NCBI GenBank assembly: GCA_030530205.1
Contig: JAUMVK010000011.1
Span: forward strand, 24,887-88,886
DNA from: Thermoguttaceae bacterium
GTDB lineage: Bacteria > Planctomycetota > Planctomycetia > Pirellulales > Thermoguttaceae
Direction: 5' to 3'
Length of the DNA: 64,000 nucleotides
The notes under the pieces are model-generated. The model was not told the DNA's origin. It did no database searches and worked only from the letters and a program-made list of their open reading frames with translations. The translations under genes were made by a program, and so were the position numbers. Every line of letters starts with the position of its first letter. The stretch's first letter is position 1. Below, in pieces: positions 22,425 to 50,040 of the stretch.

Positions 22425-22630
22425 TGCATCGTCGTTTTCAAATGCGGAAATGATCGTAAGGAACGTTACAGGCACCGTCAAACATTTCTCTAATATCTCT
22501 TTTTATACTAACATACTATTTTACACTACCTTCAAAACTACACAAGAGGGGCCACTACAATAATTAAGGAAGTTCACGAAAACTTACGAGGCTTTTTCAT
22601 TTTAACCACCCAATAACCGTTTGTAATTCC

Positions 22631-22775
22631 GGTTCATCCGACAAGTGCGTACCGACACCTTTTAATCCCCAGGATTTTTAGCTTGAAGTATTCTCCATCG
22701 CGAAAACCATAAGCCTGACGTTTCATCGTCTTGATCTTGTTGTTCAGTCCTTCCAATGGACCGGTGGAGGAAGAA
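22631..22775 (-). mobile_element. ISL3-family transposase 3' remnant plus IS end (copy B)
   Basis: The minus-strand translation TGPLEGLNNKIKTMKRQAYGFRDGEYFKLKILGIKRCRYALVG is a typical ISL3 transposase C-terminus. The terminus GGTTCATCCGACAAG starts at 22631. Confidence 0.75.
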
Positions 22776-27244: not shown

Positions 27245-28051
27245 CTAAGATTTAATACATACACCAGATAGTAAGGCCAGTGTACAGTCATCCATCGTTT
27301 TCTGGAGGAAAACTTCTTCCAGCGCGGTCTGCAGAGCGTCTGAGACTTCGTTTGAGGCAGAATCATCGAGCCACGTCAGGATTTGAGCCACCGCAGGTGC
27401 TGTGCGCAATTCGGACGCCTGGATCAACGAGTTTTCCAGCCCGTCCGTGAAAAGGGCAAAAGATCGGACCGAGCAAGTATTTCGGATGATTTCGGTGTTT
27501 CGGGCCGCGTCTTTGTCTGTAACGAAGAAGGTCACGTTGGCGTAGTCCCCTTTTGCGGGGCAGGAAACGATAAACGGTCCGTTTTCACCAAGTCCAACGA
27601 TTCCGCCGTCGCCGATGTGGACAGCCAGCCAGCTTCCATCGAGGTGGAGCACTGCTGCCACAAGTGTGCAAGAGAAGGGTTTCAAATTTTGGGGACTGCT
27701 CTTCAGGCCTGCAAATTTGCGGATGCGGCGTTGAATGACAGAGATGAGACGTTTGGCAATTTCCTCACGCGAAACACCGGGGTACTGGATCCGATGGTAA
27801 TTCTCCAGAAGCCAGCGAGCAGCGGCTCGCGACGCGATTTTGGCGCCCAGGCTTCCGAACCGGCAGCTCCCTGCTCCGTCGCAGACAGCAACCGCTTCGA
27901 GAAAGACTTTTCCCTTCCAGTTCTTGAGCGTTTCGATGGCGTATGCGTCTTCGCAAAGCGTACCGTGCCTGCGGTGCGAACGGCCGGTCGCGCTGGCTGC
28001 CGCCGCTTTGATCTCTTCAATGTCAAATGGGTAGTTCATGATCGTGTGCAT
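27245..28051 (-). CDS. PP2C-family Ser/Thr phosphatase (TerY-P triad component)
   Basis: CEDAY, AVCDGAGS, HIGDGGIV and LFTDGL blocks are typical of PP2C_2. Third gene of the kinase-vWA-PP2C operon. Confidence 0.8.
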   Translation of the reverse strand: MHTIMNYPFDIEEIKAAAASATGRSHRRHGTLCEDAYAIETLKNWKGKVFLEAVAVCDGAGSCRFGSLGAKIASRAAARWLLENYHRIQYPGVSREEIAKRLISVIQRRIRKFAGLKSSPQNLKPFSCTLVAAVLHLDGSWLAVHIGDGGIVGLGENGPFIVSCPAKGDYANVTFFVTDKDAARNTEIIRNTCSVRSFALFTDGLENSLIQASELRTAPAVAQILTWLDDSASNEVSDALQTALEEVFLQKTMDDCTLALLSGVCIKS

Positions 28052-28131
28052 CGGGAATACGGTGGTCTGTGGGAGGGATTGGGCTGGGAACAGCGCCCCA
28101 GCCCGTGTGATCCGTTAAAGGGCTTCGGATT

Positions 28132-28818
28132 CTAAATCTGCCGCCACTTCTTCATCCCCTCCCAATCCCGCGGAACGTCTTCGCCCGGACGAGAGACCGA
28201 CACCCGAATGACCGAGGCGGAGAGCCACTGGAAGAACTCCTGGAAGCAGAGTCCGCGCAGACGCAGCGGAGTGCCTGTCGTAAACTTCTGCAACATTCTC
28301 ATGTCCGTATCGTTACCGATAGCGATGGGGTAAACGACCAGTTTTCCGGACCGTTCGAGTTCCCAGCAGCGCCGAGCGGCCTGGTCGGTCACCATGGACG
28401 ATTCACCGCACGGCTGACCATCCGTCATCAGGACGAGCCACGGCTGGTAGTAATCGACTCCGACCATCTTGAGGCATTTCTTTTGGCGTTCCAGCGTGTC
28501 GAGAGCCAGATTCACACCGGTTCCAAGGACGGTACAGCCACTGGCGCCTGGAATTTGCGGCGTCCGACGGCACGAGCCGATGGTCTTGAAGTCCTGAATG
28601 AGGTTGGCTTGTGAAGAGAATGTGACGATCGCTGCCTCGGCGCTCGACGAGGCGGTGCAATCCATCCGGACCGACTCGTAGAATTTGGTGATTCCACGAT
28701 TCAGCTCGTTCAGTTTTTCACCAGCCATCGAGCCGGAAGTGTCGAGGCAGAGGGTGATCGGGACGCGCGGCGCCGGGTTGTTGAGGAGATCGTCAAGTTT
28801 GATCCGAAGATTTGCCAT
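28132..28818 (-). CDS. vWA-domain protein, TerY-like
   Basis: The start MANLRI at 28818 follows an AGAGG RBS. MIDAS motif LCLDTSGSM. 228 aa. Confidence 0.8.
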   Translation of the reverse strand: MANLRIKLDDLLNNPAPRVPITLCLDTSGSMAGEKLNELNRGITKFYESVRMDCTASSSAEAAIVTFSSQANLIQDFKTIGSCRRTPQIPGASGCTVLGTGVNLALDTLERQKKCLKMVGVDYYQPWLVLMTDGQPCGESSMVTDQAARRCWELERSGKLVVYPIAIGNDTDMRMLQKFTTGTPLRLRGLCFQEFFQWLSASVIRVSVSRPGEDVPRDWEGMKKWRQI

Positions 28819-28927
28819 AATTAAACCTCTTTGAAAAAATGAAATGAAATGGGAAATGTTTTGACTTTTCGTTATTTTGCAGACGTGACGAATTAAAACC
28901 ATCACGTCTTGAGGACTGCGACATGAT

Positions 28928-30781
28928 TCAGGGATTCCATCCGAAGAGTCGGCCCAGGAAGGAAAAAATGTCTGGGGACTGATTCGGTTTTGTCTGTTTG
29001 GATTGTTTGGGTGGCGTGTAAACAGGAGCCTGAACATAAACTACTGACTGCTGAGGATTCACCGCTTGAGGGGTCCTTGTCACAGATATATCCATATTCA
29101 TCTTCGCCTCCAACGCTTCAAGGTGGGCCTCAAGGTCCGTTTTCCCGTCAGTGCGCAACTGGTTCATTGGATTGGTGTTGTTTTTGATCCGGCGGCGGTT
29201 GTGGGGGAAAATCATCAGATCAAAACCGTATTTTTGACTGGGGCCTACAAAGGTTTCACGAGGATCTTTAAGGATGGTACAGTAACGATTGAACAGCCGC
29301 TGCCAGTTTTTGATAGTTGTCCGCGGTTTCCCGAAACCGTCCTTGTGGAAACAGTTAAAAAAACTGTCTTTGATCGGTCGCGGAAGATGAGACCAGCAGT
29401 AACGCCATTTCCCCTCGGGAACGCAGTCGGAGTGCCTTTCGCCGAGAGCGTAAGGAAAATGTCCTTTACGGATGTTCTCATCCGGGGCGCCGCCGCCCTG
29501 GTGCGAGTACGGATGCTTGCCCGGCAGCATGATCATGAAAAGGAGGATAGCCACGGAAAAAAGCTCGTTTTCCATCGTGCGAAGCGTGCTTCCCAACTGG
29601 GTTCCGTGGAGTTCCGGCGCGGTATAGCTCGGTACTCCGACCGGGCACGGGAACCCTTCGACCTGGAAACTGTCGCAGTCCACGAACCAGACGGACGTTG
29701 GGCTTTCGACCAGGATGTTCGCGCTGTTGATGTCACCAATGAGGAGGTTCATGCGGTGTATGTACGAAATCTTTTCAAGGATCGTACAGCACAGCTGGGC
29801 TAATTGCAAACGAGTCCATTCCTTGTGCTGCTCGAGCCAGCCGGGACTCATCGCGGATTCCTGCAATTTGGCCCCTCTTGCTCCCCACATGAGAAAACCG
29901 CGGAATTGGTTCCGGGTGTCATAGACGGACTTGACCGGCAAACAAATTCCTTTCTCCCGCGGAACGGCATGGCTCGCAAGGAGTTCCACCTTGGCCTTGA
30001 GGCAGGTCGTCAGTTTCTCTGGATAATACACCTTGCAGACCATACCGGGGACGTTGGTCTTGTAAACGGCCCCTTCACCTCCCTTGCTGATCTCATCACC
30101 AAGGACAACATTCGGGCAGTTCAAATCGTGAGTATGAACGGTGCTCCCTCTACCTATGGATTCCGTGACCGGAATAGGCTCGGGATTTACCGCTTCCGGG
30201 GCGAGCGCGACGCTTTTCCGAAAGGGGGTTGGAAAGCTTTCCTTCTCGTTCCGGGTTTTCTGATCGCGTTTTGTGCCGGACGATTGTCTCATCTGATGGC
30301 GGCGAAGAAGAGTATGGTCTTTCAGTTCTCCCCCCTCCAGAGCCAGGACCGTGATCTTGTGGTTGTGATAGATCGATTTTTGAGACAGGATGTCATAAAG
30401 ATCTTCACCGAGGCCACGGTCGTTCGTGATAACAACGATGTCCTTCTCGGAGTGATATTTCTGAACCGCGGCCAGAATAACAGCATCGCTATGAGTGACC
30501 GTATTCAACGCAAGCTCGCAGAAATCCATAAGGCCTTGCGCTCTGAATCGCTTGACAAGCCTCAAACTATTGTGGGCGCTTGCCGCTTTTTTTGAAATCC
30601 GGGCCAGTTTCTGGAGTTCATCCCAGACCGTTTTCAGAAGGATGATGGGGTTGCCGCGGAGCAGAGGGCTCAACATGTTCATCATCTTTTCGAACTCATC
30701 ATCCATAACGACACAGGTGTCAATCAGAATGAGTCCTTTAGAAAAAAGGGCCGAAAAGTTCTGAGTCTTGTTGTTTTTCAT
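28928..30781 (-). CDS. Ser/Thr protein kinase (YegI-like) with N-terminal PIN-like domain
   Basis: The ATG at 30781 follows an AAGGAAG RBS. The N-terminal ~170 aa carry LIDTCVVMDD...VITNDRGL (PIN-like acidic residues). The kinase core carries GGEGAVYK, CKVY, IGDINSANILV, VDCDSF and YTAPE. Confidence 0.75.
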   Translation of the reverse strand: MKNNKTQNFSALFSKGLILIDTCVVMDDEFEKMMNMLSPLLRGNPIILLKTVWDELQKLARISKKAASAHNSLRLVKRFRAQGLMDFCELALNTVTHSDAVILAAVQKYHSEKDIVVITNDRGLGEDLYDILSQKSIYHNHKITVLALEGGELKDHTLLRRHQMRQSSGTKRDQKTRNEKESFPTPFRKSVALAPEAVNPEPIPVTESIGRGSTVHTHDLNCPNVVLGDEISKGGEGAVYKTNVPGMVCKVYYPEKLTTCLKAKVELLASHAVPREKGICLPVKSVYDTRNQFRGFLMWGARGAKLQESAMSPGWLEQHKEWTRLQLAQLCCTILEKISYIHRMNLLIGDINSANILVESPTSVWFVDCDSFQVEGFPCPVGVPSYTAPELHGTQLGSTLRTMENELFSVAILLFMIMLPGKHPYSHQGGGAPDENIRKGHFPYALGERHSDCVPEGKWRYCWSHLPRPIKDSFFNCFHKDGFGKPRTTIKNWQRLFNRYCTILKDPRETFVGPSQKYGFDLMIFPHNRRRIKNNTNPMNQLRTDGKTDLEAHLEALEAKMNMDISVTRTPQAVNPQQSVVYVQAPVYTPPKQSKQTKPNQSPDIFSFLGRLFGWNP

Positions 30782-31471
30782 TTTCGCTTCCTTGTTGTTA
30801 GGGGTTCGAATAACCATCTATCATAATAAACTCGCAAGTGTGGCATAATGACAAAAAATTTTTGAAATTCTTAAAAAATTTTTTTGTTGCTATACCGTTG
30901 GTTTTGTCTTCTGATAATAATAACCTTCCCAATGGGATGATCTTCCAGAAAAAATGTCAATTTTTAAGATTTTCTGTAAAAAAAGGCCCCACTTGGGAGA
31001 AGGGCGTGGTCCAAAAAAAAATTATTGAAGGTCGTGAAATTGTGTTCAGTAAGGGGCGTGACTCGTTGGATCCAAGCTCTCCTTCTTATGCCCCCCTTAG
31101 TTTTCTCGAGAGAAGGGTGTTTTGGTGGACACGGCAAACCCTGAGAATCTGTAAGGTTTCAGTATGGATAAAACTGTAAAGAATAATTAAAATCTGACAA
31201 ACCAATACGATTTTCTAAAAAATCGGGAAAGGCCTCCTCCGGACCCTTGCGACCCAAGAAAAAGCATCCGTTAGCCATTTTTTTGCCGTCCGCTAATGAG
31301 AGATACCTCATTAACTTTTCATACTATAATCCATTCCTTTCTGTTAGTCTGCACATTGGTCACAATTCGGGTTTACAGGAGACTTTTCTCAGGTTCTGAC
31401 CAAGCCGGTTTGCTCCGAAAGTCAGAACCTGGACCCATCTTGTCAATTCCGATCCGCAGGCCATGGTATTC

Positions 31472-32605
31472 TTACTTCCAGCAAGCGTCAACACCGGCTC
31501 GGACCGCTTTGTCCCCTGCGAAGTAACCGCCGATGGCTCCCGCGACTCCGCCAACGAATCCGCCGACAGCTGTTCCGAAGATCGGAACGACAGAACCGAC
31601 GGCCGCTCCGGCTGCCGCTCCGCCGTAGGCTCCTGCAGCTGCGCCGCTCATTCCTCCGGCAAAGCTGCCCGCGTTTTTCACGTGGGATTTCACGCGCTCG
31701 TTTTGGGTGATTTGGCCGTTCTTGTACTGGGTCTCAACCTGATAGGCTTCGTAACCGCGGACTCCAACATCGACTCCCACCCCAACAGCGCCGGCACATT
31801 TAGCGAATGTACATGCCGCTGAAGCTGCTTTCACGCTTTCCGCAGCGGCGCGGGTACCTTCCGCGGCAGCACGGGTCCCTTTCGCGGTATTCGAGAGCGT
31901 CTTTGTACCAGCGCGAAGGGCCACCGAATCCTCACGGATCTCTTCAGCCCACTTGAAAGACATTTTATTCAAAGAGGTTCTGGCCATGCTGGCAGCTTCC
32001 TGCGAGCAGGTTTTCATGCTTTTCCATCCGGGCAGTTCCGGCTTTCCAAGGACGTGTTCCGTGACGGCGACGTCAATGTTCATCTCCCCCTTTGCCGCTG
32101 CTTCGAGGACCTGCCGGGCCACGCGCTTCTCGGTCTCGGAAGCCGCCGAGGAGTTCAGCGTATCCACCGCAGCGTCGATCGCCCATTCGGGTGTGCCCTG
32201 CTTGTGGTGGAAACGGTTCGGGCGCAGTTTCGGATTACGATTCTCCTCAATACCCTTCGCCTCGATGACATGGATCTTTCCATCATTACTTCGCCAGACC
32301 TGATCAAATCCCTGCGAATGATTTTTCCCTTTGTCGCCTTTTCTCAGCAACGGTTCCCAGCCCTTTTCGCGGCAAAGACGTTCCGCGCCTTCCTCGCCGA
32401 TCTCTTCGGAGATGAGGACTTGCCCTTGGATATCCAGATTCCGGACGCACTCCATGTAACGCTCGCGGTAGGCCAGCGCTTCCTCCTCTGAGAAACAGTG
32501 CGCAGAGACCTCCATGACAGTCCCCTGCGCCTGCACAGCCTCAACATTCCAACCACCAATCAGAACCAGAACGGACAGAACAACCAAAACCAACGAATTC
32601 ATCAT
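31472..32605 (-). CDS. Secreted protein: restriction-endonuclease-like N-domain + C-terminal glycine zipper
   Basis: Signal peptide. GFDQVW...DGKIHVIEAKG is a D...ExK-like block. The C-terminal ~70 aa, GGMSGAAAGAYGGAAAGAAVGSVVPIFGTAVGGFVGGVAGAIGGYFAG, form a glycine zipper. Confidence 0.55.
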   Translation of the reverse strand: MMNSLVLVVLSVLVLIGGWNVEAVQAQGTVMEVSAHCFSEEEALAYRERYMECVRNLDIQGQVLISEEIGEEGAERLCREKGWEPLLRKGDKGKNHSQGFDQVWRSNDGKIHVIEAKGIEENRNPKLRPNRFHHKQGTPEWAIDAAVDTLNSSAASETEKRVARQVLEAAAKGEMNIDVAVTEHVLGKPELPGWKSMKTCSQEAASMARTSLNKMSFKWAEEIREDSVALRAGTKTLSNTAKGTRAAAEGTRAAAESVKAASAACTFAKCAGAVGVGVDVGVRGYEAYQVETQYKNGQITQNERVKSHVKNAGSFAGGMSGAAAGAYGGAAAGAAVGSVVPIFGTAVGGFVGGVAGAIGGYFAGDKAVRAGVDACWK

Positions 32606-32725
32606 ATTTGAATCTCCTTGTTTATGTGACTTAAAAACCTTTTACCTGATATAATACTCAAGTGAGTGAAATTCCCAAAATTTCTCAAAAATTTTAAAAT
32701 TTTTTGTTTTGGGGGTGGGAAACCC

Positions 32726-32753
32726 TTGACAACCCTTTCGCGTCTGATATAAT
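32726..32753 (+). promoter_or_regulatory. Near-consensus sigma70-type promoter facing the CRISPR mini-array
   Basis: TTGACA (32726..32731), a 16-bp spacer, then TGaTATAAT (extended -10, TATAAT at 32748..32753). Confidence 0.5.
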
Positions 32754-32850
32754 AAAAGCATTAGTGAGGGAAAAATCTCATTTTCTTTGACAATTTGTGA
32801 TTTGAATTAAAGAATTCGATTCAGGGGCGGGATAAACCGTTTTCCCGTCC

Positions 32851-33090
32851 CGTACACCGATTGCACGGATTTGACAGGGTTATAACTCGATGAACTGCTT
32901 TTCTCCGATGTAGCCAAGGGTGTACAGGGTGCCTGGATTTGACAGGGTTACAGCGTATAAAAACCTTTATGCTGCTTGACAGTGACGGTGTACAGGGTGC
33001 CTGGATTTGACAGGGTTACAGCGCGGCCCCATCAATCGTGTTCCGCAGCTTTTCGGTGTACAGGGTGCCTGGATTTGACAGGGTTACAGC
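32851..33090. CRISPR. Orphan CRISPR mini-array: 4 x 36-bp repeats (first degenerate), 3 x 32-bp spacers
   Basis: Three identical copies of GGTGTACAGGGTGCCTGGATTTGACAGGGTTACAGC at 32919, 32987 and 33055. A degenerate copy CGTACACCGATTGCACGGATTTGACAGGGTTATAAC is at 32851. Spacers are unique and exactly 32 bp. No cas gene is in the window. Confidence 0.75.
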
Positions 33091-33140
33091 CTATGTTTTA
33101 GTTTAACCGCTAAAACACGAGGTTTAGTCCCTGATACACC

Positions 33141-33196
33141 AAAAAAAAATGACATTTTTCGCCCTCGCAAGGGGGTGGAAAATGTCATTTTTTTTG
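33141..33196. terminator. Bidirectional intrinsic terminator
   Basis: AAAAAAAAATGACATTTTTC-GCCCTCGCAAGGGGG-TGGAAAATGTCATTTTTTTT: a nested GC stem flanked by A and T tracts. Confidence 0.7.
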
Positions 33197-33334: not shown

Positions 33335-33385
33335 AAAAAACCCCGGTTTCGGAGCGTTGTTTCTGCTCTGAAACCGGGGTTTTTG
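33335..33385. terminator. Bidirectional intrinsic terminator downstream of the integrase remnant
   Basis: AAAAAACCCCGGTTTC...GAAACCGGGGTTTTTG: a 14-bp stem with flanking A and T runs. Confidence 0.75.
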
Positions 33386-33399: not shown

Positions 33400-33837
33400 T
33401 CACTCGAACTGATGGATCAATCCCGCGATCGCGTCGCCGCAGGCTTTATCCCGTTCCCGCACGAACCGCAGCGTCTTTTCCACCTCGGAGTGGTCGTAGA
33501 TCTGCGTGGTCTGCGTCGTCGAATGCCCCAGGGCGGTCGCGGCATCATCACGGCTCATCAGCAGGGAGAGGAAGGTTGCGGTCGCGTGTCGCAGCTGGTA
33601 CGGCGTCCACCCGGACCACGGTCCCGGCCGGAATTCGATCAACGGCTATGCTCCGGACCTGGCTATGCTTCGCATCCTCCCTGATCGCGATTTCCGCTTC
33701 CAGCATCCGCACGAGTTTTTCTTTTGCTTTTTCTTCGTCCCGGGCCAAATAGACTTTTTTCCGTCTTTGTAGCAAAAAAAGTCACCGTTGGCGCCTTTTT
33801 TAATGACCGGCAATTCAGATTTTTTTCTTTTCGGCAT
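33400..33837 (-). pseudogene. Tyrosine recombinase (phage integrase), frameshifted and internally deleted
   Basis: The C-terminal frame has YQLRHATATF...LGHSTTQTTQIYDH (R-H-...-Y catalytic region). The N-terminal MPKRKKSELPVI.. segment is in another frame. The total is far shorter than a functional integrase. Confidence 0.75.
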
Positions 33838-36471: not shown

Positions 36472-37728
36472 TTATAAATCACGTACGATTTTCCACGTTC
36501 CGTATTTTCTGGCCCCGACTCTTTCGATGATTCCATCCATCTGCAGTTGCTTCAGATACCTTAAAATAGTGGATCGTCCGAGTTCCATCGACTTCATCAA
36601 TTCGTCTATTGTGATGGCTGGATTATCTCGCAATCTTGCAAGTATTTCTTGCATGATTTTAGTCTTTTTAGTATCATTTTGAGACTCTTTAGTATCATTT
36701 TCTTTGCTGCATTCCGTCAGCAATCCTGTCGGCCTTATATTGCTTTCTAAAGAATCATATTCCATTTTCAGTTCCCGTAGCAATTCTTCTTCCGTGGGGA
36801 GATACAGCTTGTATTTGGAGGCGAAAATCTGATTCTCTTTTTCCGAAAGGGTGTATTGAACCAGTGAATCACTTTTGTTGGCACACAAGACAATGCCGAT
36901 TGGCGGATTGTCACCCGGGTTCATTAGCTCGCATTCGTAATAATGGACATACATCTGCATTTGTCCCAGGTCCTGATGAGTCAAATCCCCGACTTTCAGG
37001 TCAATTAACACAAAGCATTTCAGAATGTAATTGTAAAAGACCAGGTCGATCCGAAAATGCCTTCCGTCAAACGTAAAACGTTTTTGCCGGGCTACAAACG
37101 AGAAGCCACGGCCAAGCTCAAGCAGAAATTTTTGCAGGTGCGTAATCAAAGCCTGTTCCAGATCGCTTTCATAAAAATCGTCGTTCGGATTCAAACCAAG
37201 AAATTCCAGAACATAAGGGTCCCGGATTACATCGGATGGAGTTTGGCCAGGTTCAAGTTTTTGGATCTCTGCCGCCACCCCTTTTTTGTCTCGACTGGAA
37301 AGAAGCCGTTCGTAGAAAAAAGAGTCGATCTGTCGGGCCAGTTGACGAACACTCCAGCGGGATTTAATGGCTTCTGTGGTATAAAACTGGCGGGCTTTTT
37401 CACTATCAACCTGAATCAGGAGTCTATAATGTGACCAACTCAGATCTTTAGAGAGTTCAAGGAAATTGGGAAATGCGAGGTAAAACTGCCGCATATATTT
37501 GAGGTTCGTTGCGGTAAATCCTTTTCCAAAGTCATTAGTCAGTCTTTCCGCCAGTTCCTGAATAAGTTACTTGCCGTACTCGTTGCGTTCTGCTCCCCCT
37601 TGTTCCGCAACGATCATTTTCCCGATGTTCCAATATGCTTCCACCATCATGAAATTCACGCTATAGTACACTTTTGACCGAGCCTCGGTCAAGATTTGCA
37701 GGATTTGGTTGTAAAAATTCTCATTCAT
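36472..37728 (-). pseudogene. DUF1016 (YhcG-like PD-(D/E)xK nuclease) with C-terminal wHTH; premature TAA at codon 54
   Basis: The reading frame runs from the ATG at 37728 and is interrupted by an in-frame TAA (37569..37567). Downstream are IDLVFY...LIDLKVG (D...D.K) and a C-terminal ITIDELMKSMELGRSTILRYLKQL HTH. The 36472..37494 part could still be expressed from an internal Met. Confidence 0.7.
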
Positions 37729-38135
37729 GGTTTTGAACCTCATCGAATGGTTTCCCAGAAATACTCATCATTTTGATTATACCCAATCCACGATAATTTT
37801 CAAGGTAGGCAGAGAAGAAATTATTGATGAATGTGGTCTTGTCTCCAAGAAGAAACGTGGCTCATTCCATTTTTCACGCCCCAAAGGCTGGAACAATTTG
37901 CTGATGATAAAGTAAGCCACCTACTTAAAAAACCTTAACAAGCCTTTTATACTCTTCCTAATGCCCTAGTTCAAAATCCAAATTCAATCTCTAATTCGGC
38001 AATGTCTTCCCTTTCTGGCTTGGTGAAAGGGGGAGAATCTATTGGAGAATAGAAATAATGATTCCCTAAGAAGTTGGTTTATACCTACAGTCACTTTCGG
38101 AGAAAGACAAACCTTTTCTGTTTTTAGTAAGACAA

Positions 38136-39074
38136 TCAAAGTTTCCAGATTTCTTCACATTTTGAAACATAATCCTCAAACAATTTCAAATCAAACGAAC
38201 GAACTGGCTTCTCTTGTAGATGTTTTTTTAATTTGATAAATATATCTTTATGATCCATCTTGTCTTGATTTCCAGAATCCGGCTTCAAATATCTGGTAAT
38301 ATCGGAGAATGCTTCCTGTCCTAAAAAATCTACAATCTTGTAAACCTCTTGTAAGCCAGAAGAAGATGAAGACGGAACATACAACTCACAAATACTGTTT
38401 TGAATTGAGGAATGAAAAAGATCTTCGTTTTGATGCCACTTGAGTTTATAACGACTAATAAATGTTTGGATTTTAGGATCAAACCTGATAAATGGAAAGG
38501 GAGTCTGAGATGCGAGTTCAACAACATCACCCATGCCAGCTCCATAAAAACCGTAAGTCAATTCACTACCTAAACCAATAGAAATTGCCCCATGTAAATA
38601 GATTCCCATACTGAATAGTTGGAAACAAGACGCGATACACGCCTGTATCATTACAAATAGTGGTATGACACTTATTGTTTGGCAGCAAAAATGCTCTCTT
38701 GGATTATAGAGTCTGCAATAAAATAAGAGAGAATGTCCCAGTATTTGAACTTCAAGTTTGTTTGTTGCCTGGAAGCAATTATAATCCTGGAAAATTTGTT
38801 CAAAACAAGTTATTGTAAATTCGATGCGTGTTCGCATTTCAGCATATTGAGGGCTTAGTTTTTTCATAAGAGCATTAGATGGAATTCGATAATCAATTTC
38901 TTCATTACAAAGATCTTCAATTTCCAAATAGCAAAGTACAAACATTCCAGGTTCGGAAGAAAGTGTTTTTTTGACTCTAAAATGGAAAATTTCAGGAATT
39001 ACGGGAAGAAGTCCTTTTGATTCTCCAAGTGTATTTTCTTCAAGGATTCTATTTATAAGTTGATCCTTGTTCAT
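38136..39074 (-). CDS. Hypothetical; degenerate paralog of the upstream palm-cyclase-like protein
   Basis: Aligns with 39074..40018 (GIYLHGAISIGLG vs GIFFRGGISLGRG; VVELASQ vs ACELEES; KIVDFLGQEA vs YVVDTFGEAS). The acidic positions are changed (YLEIEDL, GHSLLFY). The start overlaps the upstream stop (TAATG). Confidence 0.6.
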   Translation of the reverse strand: MNKDQLINRILEENTLGESKGLLPVIPEIFHFRVKKTLSSEPGMFVLCYLEIEDLCNEEIDYRIPSNALMKKLSPQYAEMRTRIEFTITCFEQIFQDYNCFQATNKLEVQILGHSLLFYCRLYNPREHFCCQTISVIPLFVMIQACIASCFQLFSMGIYLHGAISIGLGSELTYGFYGAGMGDVVELASQTPFPFIRFDPKIQTFISRYKLKWHQNEDLFHSSIQNSICELYVPSSSSSGLQEVYKIVDFLGQEAFSDITRYLKPDSGNQDKMDHKDIFIKLKKHLQEKPVRSFDLKLFEDYVSKCEEIWKL

Positions 39075-40018
39075 TATTTACTCCTGGCTTGAACTGTTTT
39101 TTTTAAGTCAATATACTTTTGTTGAATATGGGGCTTATTTTGGAATTCTTGGATTTTTTGATCTGCTATTTTGAGTATTTTCAGACATTTTTGTTCAAAA
39201 TAACCAGGACTGTATTTTTCTAATAGAGTTTTTGAGGCCTCTCCAAAAGTATCCACCACATATATGCTAGGATCATTTTCATCTTTTTTAAGTATTCTGA
39301 AATTATTGTAAACGGAGTTTTGTATTATGGAGTCAAAATCTATTTCATGTAGTCGTTGAGCAGGTAGAACAATTCTGAATGATTTTGCTTTACTCTCTTC
39401 TAATTCACAAGCTTCATAAACAGGATAGGCATACAAGTTTCCTGTAAGAATCCTCATTCCACGCCCTAAACTTATACCACCGCGAAAAAAAATACCTTCG
39501 GAAAAGAACTCCAACATCGCATGTACACATATAATTAACATTATTTCAACGCTTGTTAATAATAGATTGTCAGCACATGCTACTTGAGTATATATCATAA
39601 TCGAATCTGAAAAGATTTCGGAATGAACTGGATATAGATATTCAAGACGTTGAGTGTTACCAAGTAATGGGAATAATTCTAGTATTTTCTGCTTGCTTTC
39701 AATCAGTTTGTTAATGTGATCAACAAAAAATGTTCTAAACTTATCAATTGTTCTGAGTATCTCCTGTTGTTTCTGTATTGCTCGAAAAATAGATCCATTT
39801 TCGACTGACTGTTGGATATCACTCAGTTTGTCTTTTTGACCAATTAAGTCAATGAAACACACAAGATAAAGCGGCAAGTAATTTTCCTGATTTCTCTGAA
39901 CAAGAAATTCCAGTAATTCCTGTAATTGAGACTCGTCAAGTTTTTTTAATCCTTGAAAACTTTCTGGTTCATTATGGAATGATGTATTCACATCAGTTTT
40001 AATGTGGATAATTGACAC
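39074..40018 (-). CDS. Hypothetical; nucleotide-cyclase/GGDEF/Cas10-palm-like protein (inferred)
   Basis: A GTG start at 40018 lies 5 nt after GGAGGA and 25 nt after the helicase stop. The motif order CFIDLIGQK ... IFSDSIMIY ... FFRGGISLGRG ... YPVYEACELEESKA parallels FxDxxGFT / GDxxM / RxGxHxG / VNxAARLE of palm-domain cyclases. Confidence 0.35.
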   Translation of the reverse strand: MSIIHIKTDVNTSFHNEPESFQGLKKLDESQLQELLEFLVQRNQENYLPLYLVCFIDLIGQKDKLSDIQQSVENGSIFRAIQKQQEILRTIDKFRTFFVDHINKLIESKQKILELFPLLGNTQRLEYLYPVHSEIFSDSIMIYTQVACADNLLLTSVEIMLIICVHAMLEFFSEGIFFRGGISLGRGMRILTGNLYAYPVYEACELEESKAKSFRIVLPAQRLHEIDFDSIIQNSVYNNFRILKKDENDPSIYVVDTFGEASKTLLEKYSPGYFEQKCLKILKIADQKIQEFQNKPHIQQKYIDLKKTVQARSK

Positions 40019-40043
40019 ATTTGTCCTCCAATGTGGAAAGTGT

Positions 40044-42158
40044 TTATTTAAGGAATTCAGATGGCGTGCCAAAACTTGTGATCCACGCCGCTTTTTGCGC
40101 TCGGGTGAGGGCAACATATAGAAGACACTTTTCCGACGTAGTTGTTTCTAGGCGCGTCTGTTCATCCGTTCGGTCGATGGATGCTGGAAGAGGAATCGTA
40201 CCATGGTTGACTGCCGCGACGAATACGTACTGGAATTCGAGACCTTTTACCCGGTGCATGGTGGCAATCCGAAGACCATCCGTGGAACGATCGTCGCTTT
40301 GTGTGCCCGTGATTTCAAAGGTTGGAATTCCGCTTTCTGAGAAACGTCTGGAGTATTCCTCAAGAAGTTTGTGCGTTCTCGCAACCAGGCAAATGTTTTC
40401 CAGTGCCACGTCCTCTTCGGTCAGATTCAGGATTTCTGTCAGGAGAAATTGAAATTCATCATCCGGGTTTTCAAACGTTTGTATCTTTGGCGGATTGCCG
40501 TGCATTAATGATTTACAACGATCACCAGGGTCGAGAGCTTCGTCCAGATCGTCAAAATCAACACCTTGAAGAAGCGCGAAAGCGAACTTTCTCGTTTCTT
40601 CGGTCGTTCTGTAATTGATTCTCAAAGTGCTTGATCTTCCACGAATAGCGACTCCGCAGGAAGAAAGAACCGCGTGGTTTCTGTATATTCGCTGATGAGA
40701 ATCCCCGACGATGAACAAATCGTTTTCATGTTCCCCGCCCGCCAAAGCTCGCAGAAGCCGGAAAGCGTTCGGGCTGAAATCCTGTCCTTCATCTACAATG
40801 ACATGTTTGTATTTTACAGAATTCAAACCGTTCTCGACCATCACCCGACAATCGGCCATGGCGGTATGAATGTCACGCACATTTTGTTCCTGCGTGAGTC
40901 TTTGGTAGGCATCGAAAACTTTCCAAACGTCTTTACGGCGGCTTTGAGTCAAGCCCGTCCCACGGCCAGAACGGTTAGCCGCGAGGTATTTTTCAAGAGT
41001 AAAAGCTTCCTGGGACGCAGCAACACGTGCCCATTCTTCCTTGAAAAACACCTTCGGAAGTTTCAGCTCCGCCGGTTTTTCCTTGCAGGCTTCGTTCCAG
41101 ATTTCTTTCATAGTTTCGTCTTCATAGTGAACCTCCGCCCCGTAATTTTGCGAGGCGAGAAACTCCCGCACCCACGCGTCCAGATTGACGACTTCAATCC
41201 GGGCAAATTCTTCCGGAGAACAAATTTTACGGAGATTCTCGCGAATGTCCGAGGCAAGATTGGCGGTAAAAGTAGCAAAAAGGATCTTGCCGGAAGTCAA
41301 TTTCGAGGCCAGAAATTTGGCGCGATGAAGGGCCACGACGGTTTTCCCGGTCCCGGCTCCTCCAAGTACACGGGCGGGGCCGGAGAACGTTTTCTCCATG
41401 ATTTTACGCTGGGTCGGATGCAAAAAAACACGCCATTTCTCGAGCGGCTCGGAGAGAATTTTGCGAAGTTCCTCCTCGCCATCCACGACGACGAACGACC
41501 TCGTGTTTTGTGGGCTCTCCAAGGCCTCGGCAAATGATTCCGCCGCAGGTTTGGGGCCACGATCCGCCGCAGCAAGTTCCAAAACTTCCGCTACAGGCAG
41601 ACCGTCCGCGAGGTAGGACAGATATTCGTACGCGTCACTTGGAAAAATCTTTGAGGCGGCTTTAAACTCATCATCCGAGACGATTTTTCTCACGAGAATG
41701 ATCTGCTCAGAAGGTACGCCGAGAGTCAAAAGATCGGCATCGCTTACGTTCTGGAAAAGACGGTAAGGGACGGCATAACCCGCATATTGGGGGACCAAGT
41801 CTTCTTTTTCCCCCTGTTCGACCTCGTAAACCTGAATGCTTCCCGAATAGGCATTGACCGCGCATCGCCGCCGGCAGGCCCATTCGTATGCCTCGTCGTG
41901 ATGGTCGATCCAGAGCAGAAGATACGTCCCGCTTTCCTCCTCACGTGCGAGAATCCCCCGGTATGTGTCATCGATCCGGATCGAACAGAGCCGTTTGTCC
42001 GCGGCATTGGTGATTTTCTCATAGTTCATCCCCGGCGTTTTGGGATTTTTCTGAAACTTATCGATGAAATCCGTGACTTTCCCCTGTATTTTCCTTGGCA
42101 GCTGCGCAAAGGCAGAGAGAAAGTCGGTGGACATCGCGATTTTGGGTTTGGTGGTCAT
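40044..42158 (-). CDS. SF1 UvrD/Rep-family helicase with N-terminal RelE/ParE-like domain
   Basis: GGAGTGKT Walker A, VIVDEGQDF Walker B, ATMHRVKGLEFQYVF and LLYVALTRA C-terminal motifs. The N-terminal ~95 aa (LPRKIQGKVTDFIDKFQKNP..PG..YEKI....RLCSIRIDDTYRGIL....G.YLLLWIDHHDEAY) follow the RelE/ParE toxin pattern. Confidence 0.8.
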   Translation of the reverse strand: MTTKPKIAMSTDFLSAFAQLPRKIQGKVTDFIDKFQKNPKTPGMNYEKITNAADKRLCSIRIDDTYRGILAREEESGTYLLLWIDHHDEAYEWACRRRCAVNAYSGSIQVYEVEQGEKEDLVPQYAGYAVPYRLFQNVSDADLLTLGVPSEQIILVRKIVSDDEFKAASKIFPSDAYEYLSYLADGLPVAEVLELAAADRGPKPAAESFAEALESPQNTRSFVVVDGEEELRKILSEPLEKWRVFLHPTQRKIMEKTFSGPARVLGGAGTGKTVVALHRAKFLASKLTSGKILFATFTANLASDIRENLRKICSPEEFARIEVVNLDAWVREFLASQNYGAEVHYEDETMKEIWNEACKEKPAELKLPKVFFKEEWARVAASQEAFTLEKYLAANRSGRGTGLTQSRRKDVWKVFDAYQRLTQEQNVRDIHTAMADCRVMVENGLNSVKYKHVIVDEGQDFSPNAFRLLRALAGGEHENDLFIVGDSHQRIYRNHAVLSSCGVAIRGRSSTLRINYRTTEETRKFAFALLQGVDFDDLDEALDPGDRCKSLMHGNPPKIQTFENPDDEFQFLLTEILNLTEEDVALENICLVARTHKLLEEYSRRFSESGIPTFEITGTQSDDRSTDGLRIATMHRVKGLEFQYVFVAAVNHGTIPLPASIDRTDEQTRLETTTSEKCLLYVALTRAQKAAWITSFGTPSEFLK

Positions 42159-42397
42159 GGGAGGATCGGATGAAAAATGAAACAGGCTAGCTATTTATTC
42201 ACTAACAGTTTTTTATATCTGTTTGGGGTGGTTTTGTCAAGGGGGGCCATTCGTGCACATCTTCAAGAACAGGGAAATGCCATCAATTTGTTTAAATGTG
42301 GGAGTTCCCTCCTTGAAAATTACGGACAGTCTGATATACTGGAGATATTCTCGAAAACCTTCCTGACTTTATTTACCCCTTAAACCGGCAAGATTTC

Positions 42398-43714
42398 ATG
42401 AGACTTTTGCATACCTCAGACTGGCATCTTGATGCCAAACTTGAACAGCTTTCCCGCAGCGATGAACAGCAAAAATTTCTCAATTGGCTGCGTGGAACGA
42501 TTTTGGAAAAACAGATCGATGTATTACTCGTCGCAGGGGACATTTTTGATTCCGGAAATCCGAGTAACAGTTCCCAGCTGCGATACAACCAGTTTTTACG
42601 TGAACTCTACCTGGACGCGAAAAGTGGAAAATCCGTCTGCAAAACCATAATCATCACGGCCGGGAATCACGACTCGCCCTCCTTGCTGAATGTTTCCGGC
42701 CCTTTCATGGAGCTTCTGGGGATGCACGTCGTGACTCAACCAACAGAAAATCTGCGTGAAATGATCATTCCTGTTCTTAATTCGGACGGGCAGACAGAAG
42801 CACTGATCGCAGCGGTTCCGTTTTTACGCGGGCGTGATCTGGTACCCTACATCGAACGCACTGAAGAATTGGAACTGGCCCAACAGATTCTGAATGGGAT
42901 GCAGACCTTCTACCGGATAATTACGGATGAGGCCCTGAAAATGCGCAGCGAAATCCTTGAGGAAGAGTCCCAGTCAAATTCAACACGAAATCCGAAACCC
43001 CGTTTGGAGTCCAGGATTCCGATTATCGCGACGGGGCATTTGTTCACGGCCCATGGTTCGACGCTTGACGGAGACGGCGTTCTGAATCATCGCGGGACAC
43101 TCGACCAATTCCCGGCTTCAGGTTTTCCCCCGGAGCTTTCCTACATTGCACTCGGTCATCTGCATCAGCCCCAGAGAGTCGATGGAAAGGAATACATTCG
43201 TTATTCTGGTGCCCCAATCACGATGAATTTCAGCGAGGCGGGCATTTCCAAACAGGTTCTGCTCGTTGAAACTGAAGCGGATTCTGAAGTCCGTGTAACG
43301 CCCATTCCCGTGCCAACTTTTCAGCGTCTCGAAGTGCTAAAGGGGGATTTTTCTGAAATCGAGTCTTCCGCCAAAGAATTGCCGGCAGAAGAACCTCAGA
43401 TTTGGATAAAAGCCGTTTTTACGGGAGAAACTTATGAGCTCTCCCTGCGCGACCAAATCGAGGAACTGTTTCAAACTCTGCCACATTTACAGCTCGTCAG
43501 TTTCGAGAACCAGACGGCCCATTCCAAACGTGTGCTGGATGAAATTTCCCAGCATGAGGATTTGCTCACCATGAAACCCCAGGAACTCTTTGATCGCTTT
43601 CTCGCGATGGTTCATTCCAGACTGGCAGACAGTGAAAAGCAGGATTTGAACAGACTGTTTGAGGAACTATTGGTGCAGTATGAAAATCGGCAAATCGAGG
43701 ATGGAATCGAATAA
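42398..43714 (+). CDS. sbcD: Exonuclease SbcD (Mre11-family nuclease)
   Basis: MRLLHTSDWHLD, LLVAGDIFD, ITAGNHD and GHLH phosphoesterase motifs. Confidence 0.9.
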   Translation: MRLLHTSDWHLDAKLEQLSRSDEQQKFLNWLRGTILEKQIDVLLVAGDIFDSGNPSNSSQLRYNQFLRELYLDAKSGKSVCKTIIITAGNHDSPSLLNVSGPFMELLGMHVVTQPTENLREMIIPVLNSDGQTEALIAAVPFLRGRDLVPYIERTEELELAQQILNGMQTFYRIITDEALKMRSEILEEESQSNSTRNPKPRLESRIPIIATGHLFTAHGSTLDGDGVLNHRGTLDQFPASGFPPELSYIALGHLHQPQRVDGKEYIRYSGAPITMNFSEAGISKQVLLVETEADSEVRVTPIPVPTFQRLEVLKGDFSEIESSAKELPAEEPQIWIKAVFTGETYELSLRDQIEELFQTLPHLQLVSFENQTAHSKRVLDEISQHEDLLTMKPQELFDRFLAMVHSRLADSEKQDLNRLFEELLVQYENRQIEDGIE

Positions 43715-43750
43715 TCCGGGAACACGAATTCATTAGAAAAAGGCACGCAA

Positions 43751-46700
43751 ATGTTTATCGAAAAAATCCATCTTGAAAATCTGGCCTCGCTTAAAGGGGT
43801 TTGGAACATCGACTTTACGAATCCGCAATATGATTCCGGAATATTCGCGATCACGGGCACGAATGGAGCCGGGAAAAGTACCATTCTGGATGCCGTCTGC
43901 CTCGCGCTTTATGGAAGAACGCCCCGACAGGAATCCTTTAGCAGGGAAACCGATGAAATCATGACGAAAAGTTCGGCTTCATGCTGTGCGGAGGTGACTT
44001 TCCGGACCGCCAAAGGACGTTTTACGGCCAAATGGGGGCACAAGAGAACACGGTCTGGTTCAAAAACCCCTTTTTCTCCACCAACGCATGAGTTTTCGGA
44101 GGAAGGCGGAGAAATTTTCCTCAAGCCAAGTGAAGCAAAAGAAAAAATCGAAGAATCGGTAGGTTTGAAATTCGATCAGTTTGTTCAGTCCGCGATGCTT
44201 GCGCAGTTCCAGTTTGAAAGATTTCTGAATTCCCAGACCAAGGAAAGAACCGAGATGCTGGAAACCTTGACCGGAACGCGGTACTTCAAAGAAATTGTAG
44301 ATTTTGCTCAAAAGCTGCGAAAGGAAAAAGGCAATGCCGTAGAAATTTTAAAATCGAAGGAAGGCGGAATGGGGATGGATCTGCTTTCGGAGGAAGAACT
44401 TCGGCAAAAAAAGTCTGATCTTGAGCAAAAAAAACAATCCTCCAAGGAACTGGAATGCCAAATTGCCGCGCTTCAAAAAGAACTGAACCAGTCAGAAGCC
44501 TGGAATCAGCTCCAAAAAAAACTCCACAAAGACGAGCAGGATCAGGAATCCCTGAATTTGTGTTTTGAGAAATTCATCCCACAGCGGCAGAAAATGGAAA
44601 AGGGATTAAAAGCAAAAAAAATTCAGTCCAAAGAAAAAGAACGAAGTTCCATTTTGGAAAAAACGGAGCAAAATCAGAAAAATCTGGAGGAACTGCAAAC
44701 TCAAAAGAATGATTTGGATGCCAAACTGAGTCACCTGGAAGAAGAAATCCGAAAAAAAGACGCCGCCTTGCAGGAAGCTAAAAATGAACTCGAAACGGTG
44801 ATGCCGGTTTTAACCCAGGTGCGGAATCTCGATGCTTTTTTGGCTGAAATTGATCAGGAATGCAAGAGACTGCGTCAAAAGTGGGAGGAACAGAGGAATT
44901 TATGTACTTCTGAGGAATCAAAACTGGCAGAGATTTCCCAAAAAACGGCTCAATCCCAACCAATATGGGTTCAACTCCTGAATCAGCTCCCGGAAAAAGT
45001 ACGCGATTCGCAGAACGTAAGCACTGGGACGCACCCAATTCTGGAAGATTATTCCAGTCTGAAAAGTTCTGGCAGGGATATCATTGGAAAGCTTGCGGAT
45101 TGCACACGGCTGGAAGGTGAATTGAAGAAACTCCAGAATCAAAAAGCCCAGCTGGAAGCGGACCTGAAGCAAAAATCGACGGTTTTTCAGGATGCTTGTA
45201 CAGCCACCGGAAAAAAGCGAGAGGATCTTCAGAAAATTGAACTCGTGTTCAAGGAATTACAGGAAAAGAAAGAGAAAAACGAAACGCAGAATAAAACGGA
45301 TTGGAATTGCCGCCAACTCCTTAAGGAAATCGATTCCATAAAACAGAACTCGGAAGAACGACGGAAGAAAATGCTCGAATGTCGGGAGGCAGGACTTCAA
45401 AACCGGCAAAAAGACGAGGAACTCAAACAGGAATTCACCGAAATTTCAGGAGAACTGGAAAAGATTTGTTCCCGAATGGAAGAGTTACGAGCCATTCTTG
45501 AAGGGGTTCATCGAATCAGGAACTACGAAGAAGCCCGAAAAATGCTTCACGATGGAACTCCGTGTCCCTTGTGTGGGGCGCTGCACCATCCTTACGCAGA
45601 ACATAATCCTAAAGATGGGACGTTTGAAGAGTCTGAGCTAGAAAAATTGGGAAATCAAAGAAAAAAGTTGGAGGCCAAACAAACAGAAATCGAAAAAAAG
45701 AGAAGTGAACACTCAAAGAAAATGCTGCGTGATGAACTTGAACTGAAAAATCTCGAAAATACTGAAAAAGAAGATCAAAAAAAGTTTGCAGAGAATTTGA
45801 GTCATCTTGAAAAACTCCGTTCGGATATTCCGGAGAATCTGGCCCAAAAAGATTCTGATGTTTTCCTGGAAACCATCAGAACCGCATTGGATTTGCGCGA
45901 TGCCGAATCGGAAGCGCTTACTCGTCAGTACAATGCAGCCGCGGAACAAAAGAAAAAGCTGGAAAACGAGTGGAAGTCTTTGGAAAACGAGCAGCACAAA
46001 ACGGAAGCGGAATTAAACGACTGTAAACTGAATCATTCCAGATGTGACTCGACAATTCAGGCCAAAAAAGAAGATTTAGACCGTCTGGACACGGAATTGG
46101 CAAAACTGGAACCTCCACTTTGGGAGTCTGTTTTGCCGTATATTTCCGAATTTCTTCCCGGTCCTGCCTGGGATCAGGAGTCGATGTACACGGAACGTTT
46201 GGCTTGGTGGAAAAAAACAGACGAATGTCTGGAAAATATGTACCGGACATGGACTGGAATTCACACCGAATACCAAAAGCGCCTCGAATTGCAAAGGGAT
46301 GAGATCCTTGCGAAAGACCACTTGGCAGCGGCTCAAAAATCTGAACGGGAAACAAGAGAAGATCTGGATGGGAAGCGCGCGAACTACGAATCCAAAGAGA
46401 AAGAACGTAAATCAAAGCTTCAGGATCGTGACCCGGAAAAGGTGGAGGACGAACTTCAAAAAAACAAGAAGAACGCTCAAGAGATGCTTGCCAAAGCCCA
46501 AAAAGAAAAACAGGACCTTGATAAAAAGCAGGCTGGACTCAACGCAACGATCGGACAAACTCAAAAAAACCTGGCTTCCGATCTCGCCCAAAAAAATCGG
46601 ATCGAGACTGAATTTCAGGCAATTCTTCAAGCGGAAGGCTTTGCAGATGAGGAAGATTATTACCGTTCACAACTCAGTGACTCTGAACTTGAAGAGTTGG

Positions 46701-47533: not shown

Positions 47534-47623
47534 CCATTGAGCATATACTTGACCACTGGCACAAAGACAAAAAAACTGTAATTCTTTGAGAAATTTGGTC
47601 CAAAAGATTTCCCACAAGCCTAC

Positions 47624-50037: not shown

Positions 50038-50040
50038 ACA

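Follow-up and report, generated by a model that had tools for sequence, protein, structure and literature searches.

In a stretch of 64,000 nucleotides (nt) from a Thermoguttaceae bacterium (Planctomycetota; NCBI GenBank assembly GCA_030530205.1, contig JAUMVK010000011.1, positions 24,887–88,886 of the forward strand), hereafter called the window, there is a small CRISPR array that has its own promoter and its own terminator and no set of cas genes beside it. The locus raises the question of whether such an array is still in use and, if so, by which CRISPR system, from which strand it is transcribed, and what is done by the trailer between its last repeat and its terminator, part of which is complementary to the repeat. 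We regard it as highly probable that this is a genuine array, ready for expression, that belongs to a type III-D-variant system and no longer has cas genes next to it.

The 36-nt repeat GGTGTACAGGGTGCCTGGATTTGACAGGGTTACAGC occurs in three identical copies, which start at positions 32919, 32987, and 33055 of the window. Their strict period of 68 nt yields three spacers of 32 nt when a degenerate fourth copy at 32851–32886 is included. Shuffled versions of the window gave an expectation of 0 for these 3 matches, and no further copy of the repeat was found in the 64 kb. With at least three near-identical repeats and unique spacers of like length, the locus is a CRISPR array by the generic criterion. 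Its promoter scored 12/12 and has an extended −10 TG element, and 97 nt separate the end of the −10 element from the degenerate repeat. The terminator, whose 23-nt arms (33142–33164 and 33173–33195) lie between A9 and T8, begins 51 nt past the last repeat. In the trailer between them are the hairpin GTTTTAG-N8-CTAAAAC (33095–33116) and the segment GGTTTAGTCCCTGATACACC (33121–33140). An earlier model-made reading of the letters alone (below, the sequence-only reading) had described four repeats of 36 bp with three spacers of 32 bp, a plus-strand promoter ∼95 nt upstream, a strong bidirectional terminator ∼50 nt downstream, and the same hairpin and segment, and all of these were present. Rfam models gave nothing at the gathering threshold over the whole window, and a permissive scan of the array returned only spurious miRNA-like matches on the terminators and a sub-threshold CRISPR-DR18 match on the terminator loop.

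The array had also been described as cas-less. Tblastn searches of the 64-kb window with Cas10, the repeat-associated mysterious proteins (RAMPs), Cas1, Cas2, Cas6, and Csx3 from the related loci described below yielded nothing, and Pfam and padloc scans of its open reading frames (ORFs) detected no core cas gene. The description is therefore correct for the core genes, but not for an ancillary one: a Card1-type effector gene (12567–13802) lies 19 kb from the array, in a low-GC islet with no cas10 nearby. Homologues of this gene lie inside the type III loci of the comparison contigs L020, L026, L038, and L042, and the window copy is likely to be a trans partner of the system. The search with Card1 identified L020, in which Card1 is part of a full type III locus in the order kinase, array A, cas10, three RAMP-fusion genes, Card1, a 350-amino-acid (aa) gene, array B, cas2-cas1, and cas6. 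The padloc matches of its effector genes were Cas10, Cas7_IIId/Cas5_IIId, Csm3, and Cas6. Arrays A and B have the same mini-array design as the window array, and their repeat is identical to that of the window at 33 of the 36 positions.

The exact repeat of the window was then found beside cas genes. A Cas6 homologue (P0016) is encoded directly beside arrays of this repeat in L028–L030, and the Cas10 homologue P0026 led to complete loci on pig-gut contigs of up to 75 kb (L032–L037). These loci encode Cas10, a 682-aa Cas7-Cas5 fusion, a 475-aa double Cas7, a 786-aa Cas7 with an insertion, Cas2-Cas1, Csx3, and Cas6, and NCBIfam models recognized a type III RAMP family and Csx3. They carry arrays whose repeats are identical to that of the window at 36 of 36 positions, one array between the csm3-like gene and cas2-cas1 and another beyond cas6. 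Both cas-linked arrays share the leader module; of the two, only the internal one was seen to its end, and its trailer and terminator are those of the window array. No cas9 or cas12 gene was linked to the window repeat or to a related repeat in any of the cas loci found, and the window has no cas9 either. Based on these comparisons, the window array probably belongs to a type III-D-variant, Cas6-dependent system of pig-gut and rumen Thermoguttaceae. The suggestion in the sequence-only reading that the array uses cas genes located elsewhere is thus the most plausible one: a search for the same repeat and for cas loci found the exact repeat in L028–L030 and L032–L037, including complete cas loci in the pig-gut population, and a gene for a Card1 responsive to cyclic oligoadenylate is retained in the window. 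Guesses at types II-C, V-F, and VI-B, drawn from the self-complementary ends of the repeat, are superseded by this direct linkage to type III cas genes.

The Cas10 of these loci is short and carries the GGDD cyclase motif, but an N-terminal HD motif is absent. Signaling by cyclic oligoadenylate is therefore the expected basis of immunity, in keeping with the presence of Card1 and of the ring nuclease Csx3.

Arrays of this kind are not confined to the cas loci. A scan of metagenomes for the repeat core gave six loci, in which the arrays lie at at least three genomic sites with no cas genes within 10–14 kb. Their leader and promoter are homologous, except in L006, a 50-nt trailer with the terminator follows wherever the end was seen, and in most of them the degeneracy of the first repeat is limited to its 5′ end. 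At the DNA level, the nearest relatives of the array locus are from pig-gut metagenomes, and the transporter encoded near the array is 86–93% identical to proteins of uncultured Thermoguttaceae metagenome-assembled genomes (goat and buffalo forestomach or intestine, and other metagenomes). The repeat core had 0 matches in the species-representative genomes, where the representatives of the lineage lack the exact repeat, and 0 matches in IMG/VR. Across the loci there are 15 unique spacers of 31–34 nt, and at a single site the spacers differ from strain to strain. This site is represented by the window, L004, and L002/L003: L004 has the two distal spacers of the window and other proximal ones, and L002 and L003 share the proximal spacer and differ distally. 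No self-target of the spacers was found in the compared loci, and the single 17/18-nt match is a chance match. The arrays form a dispersed family whose modules are self-contained and show real turnover of spacers. A zero-spacer module was also seen in the divergent locus L026 (9420–9545, minus strand), where one repeat-like segment (TTGCCTGGATTTAACAGGGGTACAAA) is followed by the homologous trailer and terminator, near csx3 and Card1; the genes upstream of it (1049, 485, 412, and 438 aa) have no recorded Pfam hits. A 1067-aa ORF beside the long L001 array was considered as a hidden effector and rejected, as it has no Pfam, padloc, or PDB similarity and sits among sugar-metabolism genes.

The position of the window array can be compared with that of array B in the cas loci. 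The kinase, Card1, and 350-aa genes of L020 have homologues in the window, and its core cas genes have none. A 350/377-aa gene followed by a divergent array is the arrangement in L020, L042, and the window alike. Furthermore, window positions 31472–32790 have colinear counterparts in L028 (85% nucleotide identity) and L030 (97%), which have cas6 and another array immediately to the left and whose homology to the window ends sharply at the stop codon of the 377-aa gene. On the right flank, the window has an integrase fragment where L020 and L032 hold cas2-cas1. Because of the shared neighbor genes, the colinearity with L028 and L030, and the breaks on both flanks, we infer that the window array was once array B of a type III locus and has outlasted the cas genes on both of its sides.

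The integrase fragment would then mark a rearranged flank rather than a carrier element. The sequence-only reading had proposed that the array is borne by a mobile element, and a mini-array carried by an integrative element or phage might serve that element, e.g., in competition between elements. The fragment lies 300 nt downstream of the array, the surrounding defense island is variable and of lower GC content, and there are remnants of insertion sequences nearby. However, the integrase is an 80-aa remnant below the threshold, the repeat core and two window spacers had no match in IMG/VR, none of the 15 spacers had one among reference phages and plasmids, canonical cas loci contain the same module, and the array with its left neighbor is syntenic with chromosomal type III loci. 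The last of these speaks against the proposal, and we consider a mobile-element origin highly improbable.

We turn to the direction of transcription. The −35 TTGAC and the TGnTAnAAT motif are kept at the paralogous arrays of L001, L028, and L032, where the bases between the hexamers differ, and the terminator stem of L005 has a compensatory A>G/T>C change. No minus-strand promoter was found between the terminator and the array. Because the promoter hexamers are conserved, the terminator stem is compensated, a minus-strand promoter is lacking, and the 3′ part of the first repeat is kept (see below), the array is probably transcribed on the plus strand. The leaders of the window, L001, L002, L028, and L032 share a GC hairpin and a box CTTTGACAATTTG, at varying distances from the first repeat. 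The hairpin, with its U-tract, comes right after the predicted transcription start; its stems differ in sequence (GAGGG/CTC, GGGG/CCCC, and GGG/CCC), and the box is invariant. The two elements may be an attenuator or a protein-binding site. The promoter and leader of the L006 array are unlike this common type. At 2813–3417 of L028, the relative with 85% identity, what comes after the homologue of the array promoter and 5′ hairpin is no array but a 160-aa ORF preceded by a ribosome-binding site, which means that the same promoter module drives either an array or a protein gene.

The first repeat was the reason why transcription from the other side had been considered, because degeneracy at the promoter-proximal repeat is opposite to the usual leader-distal decay. 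This repeat is indeed degenerate, but not uniformly so: positions 14–36 match the consensus at 19 of 23 sites, and positions 1–13 at 7 of 13. In the five arrays with a degenerate first repeat (the window, L001, L002/3, L020A, and L038), 19–23 of the 23 bases at positions 14–36 are kept, and only 6–8 of the 13 at positions 1–13, except in L020A with 11 of 13. Positions 14–36 consist of a 4-bp hairpin (CCUG/CAGG) and exactly 8 nt after it (GUUACAGC). This layout is as expected for Cas6 cleavage, and the putative cleavage site would lie at the 3′ base of the hairpin. In a type III-D2 system, Cas6 was shown experimentally to leave an 8-nt 5′ tag (PMC13294483). In the loci found here, cas6 (P0016) directly adjoins arrays with the exact window repeat, i.e., with the same weak 4-bp hairpin followed by 8 nt. 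The 5′ third of the first repeat is free to decay because it would form only the 3′ tail of a CRISPR RNA (crRNA) that does not exist, and its selective decay explains the degeneracy at the apparently wrong end without a reversal of the strand. The proposal of transcription from the other side is accordingly not supported, in view of both the conserved plus-strand hexamers and the retained plus-strand Cas6-type part of the first repeat. The recurrent loss of this 5′ third is a natural indicator of the crRNA-relevant nucleotides and of the transcribed strand, and the pattern could help in the computational orientation of arrays.

The adaptation genes bring in evidence of another kind. The Cas1 of the cognate loci, which lie outside the window, scored 233 bits against the NCBIfam type II model TIGR03639 (cut-off, 120). 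For the Cas1-Cas2 pairs at L032 18228–19456 and L020 12977–14133, the best padloc matches of Cas1 were type II Cas1 models, and the closest solved structures in PDB are type II-A Cas1 proteins. On the minus strand, the repeat starts with GCTGTAACCC, which we take, as a lead only, to resemble type II-C repeats. In the same minus-strand view, a terminator and a hairpin precede the array. Type II-C arrays are often preceded by a terminator and a hairpin (PMC12080349). These observations suggest that the array and the adaptation module came from a type II-like system. The pairing of type II-like adaptation with a type III-D-variant effector is unusual, and the combination of fused Cas7/Cas5, Card1/Csx3, and type II-type adaptation bears on the exchange of modules and arrays between CRISPR types.

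The same facts could be read as a minus-strand array in the style of type II-C, with the repeat starting GCTGTAACCC, the right-hand terminator and hairpin acting as an upstream insulator and a guide hairpin, and the degenerate left repeat as the trailer end. Such a reading would agree with the type II-like Cas1-Cas2 pair, with the terminator and hairpin that typically stand upstream, by the extra repeat, in II-C arrays (PMC12080349), with the classical position of a degenerate terminal repeat at the far end, and with the CTAT next to the right-most repeat, which is kept in all lineages. Nevertheless, we consider it very unlikely: there is no minus-strand promoter between the terminator and the array, the minus-strand 3′ end of the repeat (TGTACACC) makes a poor −10 element, the plus-strand promoter is conserved across the paralogues, none of the loci has cas9, and what the degenerate first repeats keep is exactly the plus-strand Cas6 hairpin and tag.

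The trailer is complementary to the 5′ end of the repeat. As had been reported in the sequence-only reading, 11 bp can form with one bulge; the energy of this pairing is −16.9 kcal/mol. Its chance probability had been estimated as about 1 in 10, but the pairing is rarer, as only 0.45% of the trailer shuffles reached this value (p ∼0.005). Wherever the trailer end of an array of the window repeat type was seen, also at the cas-linked array, the trailer is near-identical (≤ 2 substitutions). The minimum-free-energy fold predicted for the last repeat and the trailer is a three-way junction that encloses the last repeat. Its arms are the 5′ end of the repeat paired with 33129–33140, the repeat hairpin, and the tag region plus CU paired with 33119–33123 and extended by the hairpin at 33095–33116. 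In the L020 lineage, the 5′ end of the repeat reads CCGAG instead of CAGGG, and CTCGGTAAACC within the trailer pairs with that variant (−15.6 kcal/mol, p ∼0.0075) at another trailer position and in the same junction topology. Cross pairs between the repeat of one lineage and the trailer of the other are weak (−8.5 to −10.6 kcal/mol). The trailer of the distant L038 lineage starts with CTAT and has a hairpin of another sequence, an A-run, and a terminator. The Cas10-homologue contigs L041 and L042 end before their trailers and add nothing to this comparison.

This complementarity had been interpreted as a possible tracr-like RNA, i.e., an RNA like the trans-activating crRNA (tracrRNA) or scoutRNA, whose anti-repeat pairs in trans with every repeat for processing in a class 2 (type II or V) system. 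The complementarity does exist, and in one sister lineage it follows the altered repeat, but the rest of the interpretation found no support. Even with the p value above, a 36-nt repeat, a linked Cas1 that passes the type II model, and a strong hairpin terminator at the end of the trailer, as in tracrRNAs, we consider it extremely improbable. All cas loci found with the window repeat are type III with Cas6 and have no cas9 or cas12, and a system of that kind requires no tracrRNA. Moreover, the segment lies inside the array transcript and has no promoter of its own, its pairing is far shorter than a type II anti-repeat (∼20 nt or more), no Rfam tracrRNA model matched, and the L038 lineage does without the pairing. 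Known class 2 tracrRNAs and scoutRNAs likewise combine a short repeat complementarity with a terminator hairpin after it, whereas the window trailer has no Cas9 or Cas12 partner and no promoter, pairs over 11 bp in cis within the precursor crRNA (pre-crRNA), and has cognate loci with Cas6.

The complementarity is better explained by sequestration in cis than by the anti-repeat of a trans-acting RNA. A repeat without a spacer of its own gives rise to an “extraneous” crRNA, which in class 1 systems comes from the last repeat (PMC13187072). Types II-A and VI-B block such crRNAs with leader-repeat hairpins (PMC13187072), and type II-C resorts to a terminator upstream, to a hairpin within the would-be guide, or to mutations in the repeat (PMC12080349). 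We hypothesize that the trailer sequesters the spacer-less last repeat in cis and would in this way prevent a useless extraneous crRNA. In its full form, the proposal is tentative, and we think it more doubtful than probable: the trailer would be a class 1 (type III, Cas6) counterpart, on the trailer side, of the II-A and VI-B leader-repeat hairpins, hiding the 5′ end of the repeat and its 8-nt tag so that no spacer-less crRNA would be made or loaded, a task for which other class 1 arrays rely on mutation of the terminal repeat. As a linked possibility, a type II-C-like system may have been the source of a captured array module (a 36-nt repeat, a terminator and hairpin at one end, and type II-type Cas1-Cas2) that a type III-D effector system now reads in the opposite direction.

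Taken as an expression-ready array, the locus would work as follows. Transcription from the plus-strand promoter would produce a pre-crRNA of ∼430 nt that ends at the terminator. A Cas6 encoded elsewhere would cut at the 3′ base of the CCUG/CAGG hairpin and leave the 8-nt 5′ tag GUUACAGC on each spacer, while the trailer would pair in cis with two parts of the last repeat, its 5′ end and its tag region, and so prevent the extraneous crRNA. The crRNAs would be loaded in trans into a type III complex, in which the binding of target RNA would activate the Cas10 cyclase, and the cyclic oligoadenylate would activate Card1.

Several observations weigh against this account. The hairpin of the first repeat in the window is broken (CACG instead of CCUG) and its tag reads GUUAUAAC, with two tag mutations, so spacer 1 may be poorly processed or poorly loaded. 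Even the intact hairpin has only 4 bp, and the repeat folds no better than its shuffles. No protospacer was found for the 15 spacers among reference phages and plasmids or for two window spacers in IMG/VR, databases that are poor for this host, and a spacer comparison proposed in the sequence-only reading thus brought no match. The comparisons of acquisition polarity conflict and point to different ends: the window versus L004 favors the promoter end, and L002 versus L003 favors the terminator end, as does L032 (18002–18104), where the two terminator-proximal repeats share G29C, the first base of the putative 8-nt tag. As regards the trailer, the covariation with the repeat rests on two of the three lineages examined, as the L038 trailer does not pair with its repeat (p 0.33). 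Finally, the cas genes have been lost on both flanks at the window site, and the array could be a relic.

A relic would be the remains of a type III locus that the strain has wholly lost, perhaps still transcribed into RNA that is neither processed nor used. The cas genes at the matching positions of L020 and L028/L030 are absent from the window without remnants, the right flank holds the integrase fragment, the tag of the first repeat is mutated and its hairpin broken, and L026 is an example of how such modules can decay to a lone repeat with its trailer. On the other hand, three repeats are still identical to the cas-linked consensus at 36 of 36 positions, the promoter matches the consensus perfectly, neither the trailer nor the terminator is damaged, and the Card1 gene is retained at full length. 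Additionally, cas-less arrays with differing spacers occur at at least three sites in the same pig-gut study metagenomes (SAMEA36632xx) as the complete loci. We therefore consider a dead relic possible but less likely than use. The perfect repeats, the perfect promoter, and the retained Card1 favor use over relic, and the answer depends on the rest of the genome.

Table. Array elements and neighboring genes in the window (positions are those of the window).
Feature	Position	Strand	Remarks
Array promoter, TTGACA, 16 nt, TG-a-TATAAT	32726–32753	+	
Leader elements: small GC hairpin and U-tract (32766–32784), then CTTTGACAATTTG box (32785–32797)	32766–32797	+	
Repeat 1, 5′ third degenerate (CGTACACCGATTGCACGGATTTGACAGGGTTATAAC)	32851–32886	+	65% identity overall
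Spacer 1 (TCGATGAACTGCTTTTCTCCGATGTAGCCAAG)	32887–32918	+	Only in window, L007, and L008; L004 has two other spacers here
Repeat 2 (consensus), GGUGUACAGGGUG[CCUG-GAUUUGA-CAGG]GUUACAGC	32919–32954	+	Identical to repeats in cas-linked arrays of L028–L030 and L032–L037
Spacer 2	32955–32986	+	Common to window and L004
Repeat 3 (consensus)	32987–33022	+	
Spacer 3	33023–33054	+	Common to window and L004
Repeat 4, last, spacer-less “extra” repeat, intact	33055–33090	+	Predicted to be enclosed in three-way junction with trailer
Trailer: CTAT, hairpin (33095–33116), segment 33129–33140 (CCCTGATACACC) pairing with 5′ end of last repeat	33091–33141	+	
Intrinsic terminator, bidirectional by sequence: A9, hairpin with 23-nt arms, T8	33142–33195	.	
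Card1/Can2-type CARF + PD-(D/E)xK effector gene, stand-alone, full-length	12567–13802	+	padloc CARF4--CARF_PDDEXK, 2.8e-46; Pfam CARF_Card1 and Card1_endonuc
Neighbor gene, 377 aa, divergent from array promoter	31472–32605	−	No family match
Integrase fragment	33400–33642	−	Phage_integrase C-terminal piece, 80 aa, E 2.7e-4, below Pfam cut-off

Among the neighbors, the 377-aa gene has homologues next to array B in L020 and L042 (46% aa identity) and next to cas6 in L028 and L030 (82% aa identity; 85–97% at the nucleotide level). Its product, which had no match in Pfam, padloc, or NCBIfam, has by eye an N-terminal hydrophobic segment and a Gly-rich C-terminus, and a look-up of its exact sequence (second start) gave only short contigs that break in the array. 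It may be an uncharacterized accessory of the CRISPR system. Next to the array locus is also a trio of genes for a PP2C phosphatase, a VWA protein, and a Ser-Thr kinase (27245–30817, minus strand), the kinase with a weak N-terminal PIN-like match; a kinase homologue (51% aa identity) borders the type III locus in L020 (1–1745). This module may be a conserved neighbor or accessory of the CRISPR system.

The array lies in a lower-GC defense island that includes genes for a DUF4417 protein, the PP2C phosphatase, the VWA protein, the kinase, a YhcG-type nuclease, a UvrD helicase, SbcCD-like proteins, and a double-GTPase module. The defense-type genes at 36472–53201 comprise a YhcG/PDC-S02 nuclease with a winged helix-turn-helix domain, a UvrD-like helicase, and an SbcD/SbcC-like pair. 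Two low-GC ORFs without matches lie at 38136–40117 (GC content, 33%), and a 759-aa protein followed by DO-GTPase2 and GAP1-N2 proteins is also encoded. A second strong hairpin terminator (20-nt arms) was found at 33336–33384, 140 nt past the array terminator and just before the integrase fragment; it is kept in L004 and not in L003. The 422-aa ORF that adjoins Card1 (14304–15572) had no padloc match. In L032, a gene for an ISL3 transposase borders the cas10 operon, and its two end regions are 96% identical to window positions 12166–12328 and 22624–22768, which bracket the region from Card1 to a sialic-acid transporter. A 317-aa ORF (11323–12276, minus strand) may encode a related transposase.

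As an orphan array of a type III system, the locus belongs to a well-known class. The window array shares with orphan arrays served in trans by type III systems its intact repeats, its own promoter and terminator, the lack of core cas genes within ∼31 kb on each side, an identical repeat linked to a complete cas locus elsewhere in the population, and the occurrence of several dispersed arrays with one repeat type. It differs from them in that its ancestry is unusually traceable, as array B, and in that its cas locus is known from related contigs and not from the genome of the window. Its main value is that of a well-resolved example, in which the lost cas genes and their places can be read from the comparison loci.

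The cognate cas loci resemble the described fused-subunit variants of type III-D, III-Dv and III-D2 (PMC13294483; PMC12669027; bioRxiv 10.1101/2022.06.13.496011) in the short Cas10, the Cas7-Cas5 fusion, the multi-Cas7 protein, the Cas7 with a large insertion, and Cas6, and also in a repeat of ∼36–37 nt compatible with an 8-nt 5′ tag (PMC13294483). They carry Card1 and Csx3, implying cyclic oligoadenylate, whereas the described III-D2 system has CorA with a toxin-antitoxin and the messenger SAM-AMP (S-adenosylmethionine–AMP). They also differ in an adaptation module that passes the type II Cas1 model and in holding mini-arrays with their own promoter and terminator, two flanking ones in L020 and an internal one plus one beyond cas6 in L032.

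The trailer, in turn, may be compared with the leader-repeat hairpins of types II-A and VI-B and the guide hairpins and terminators of type II-C. As in these structures (PMC13187072; PMC12080349), a transcribed flank is complementary to the spacer-less repeat, and a hairpin inside the would-be guide adjoins a terminator. In contrast to them, the structure in the window is on the trailer side of a class 1 array, and its predicted three-way junction also engages the 8-nt tag region. In searchable papers, we found no description of such a trailer-side structure in a class 1 array. If the proposal is true, it extends to class 1 a principle so far shown only for class 2. Whereas the usual class 1 solution is a mutated last repeat, that of the window is intact, and the trailer-repeat structure is a testable candidate for how class 1 arrays with an intact last repeat avoid wasting effector complexes.

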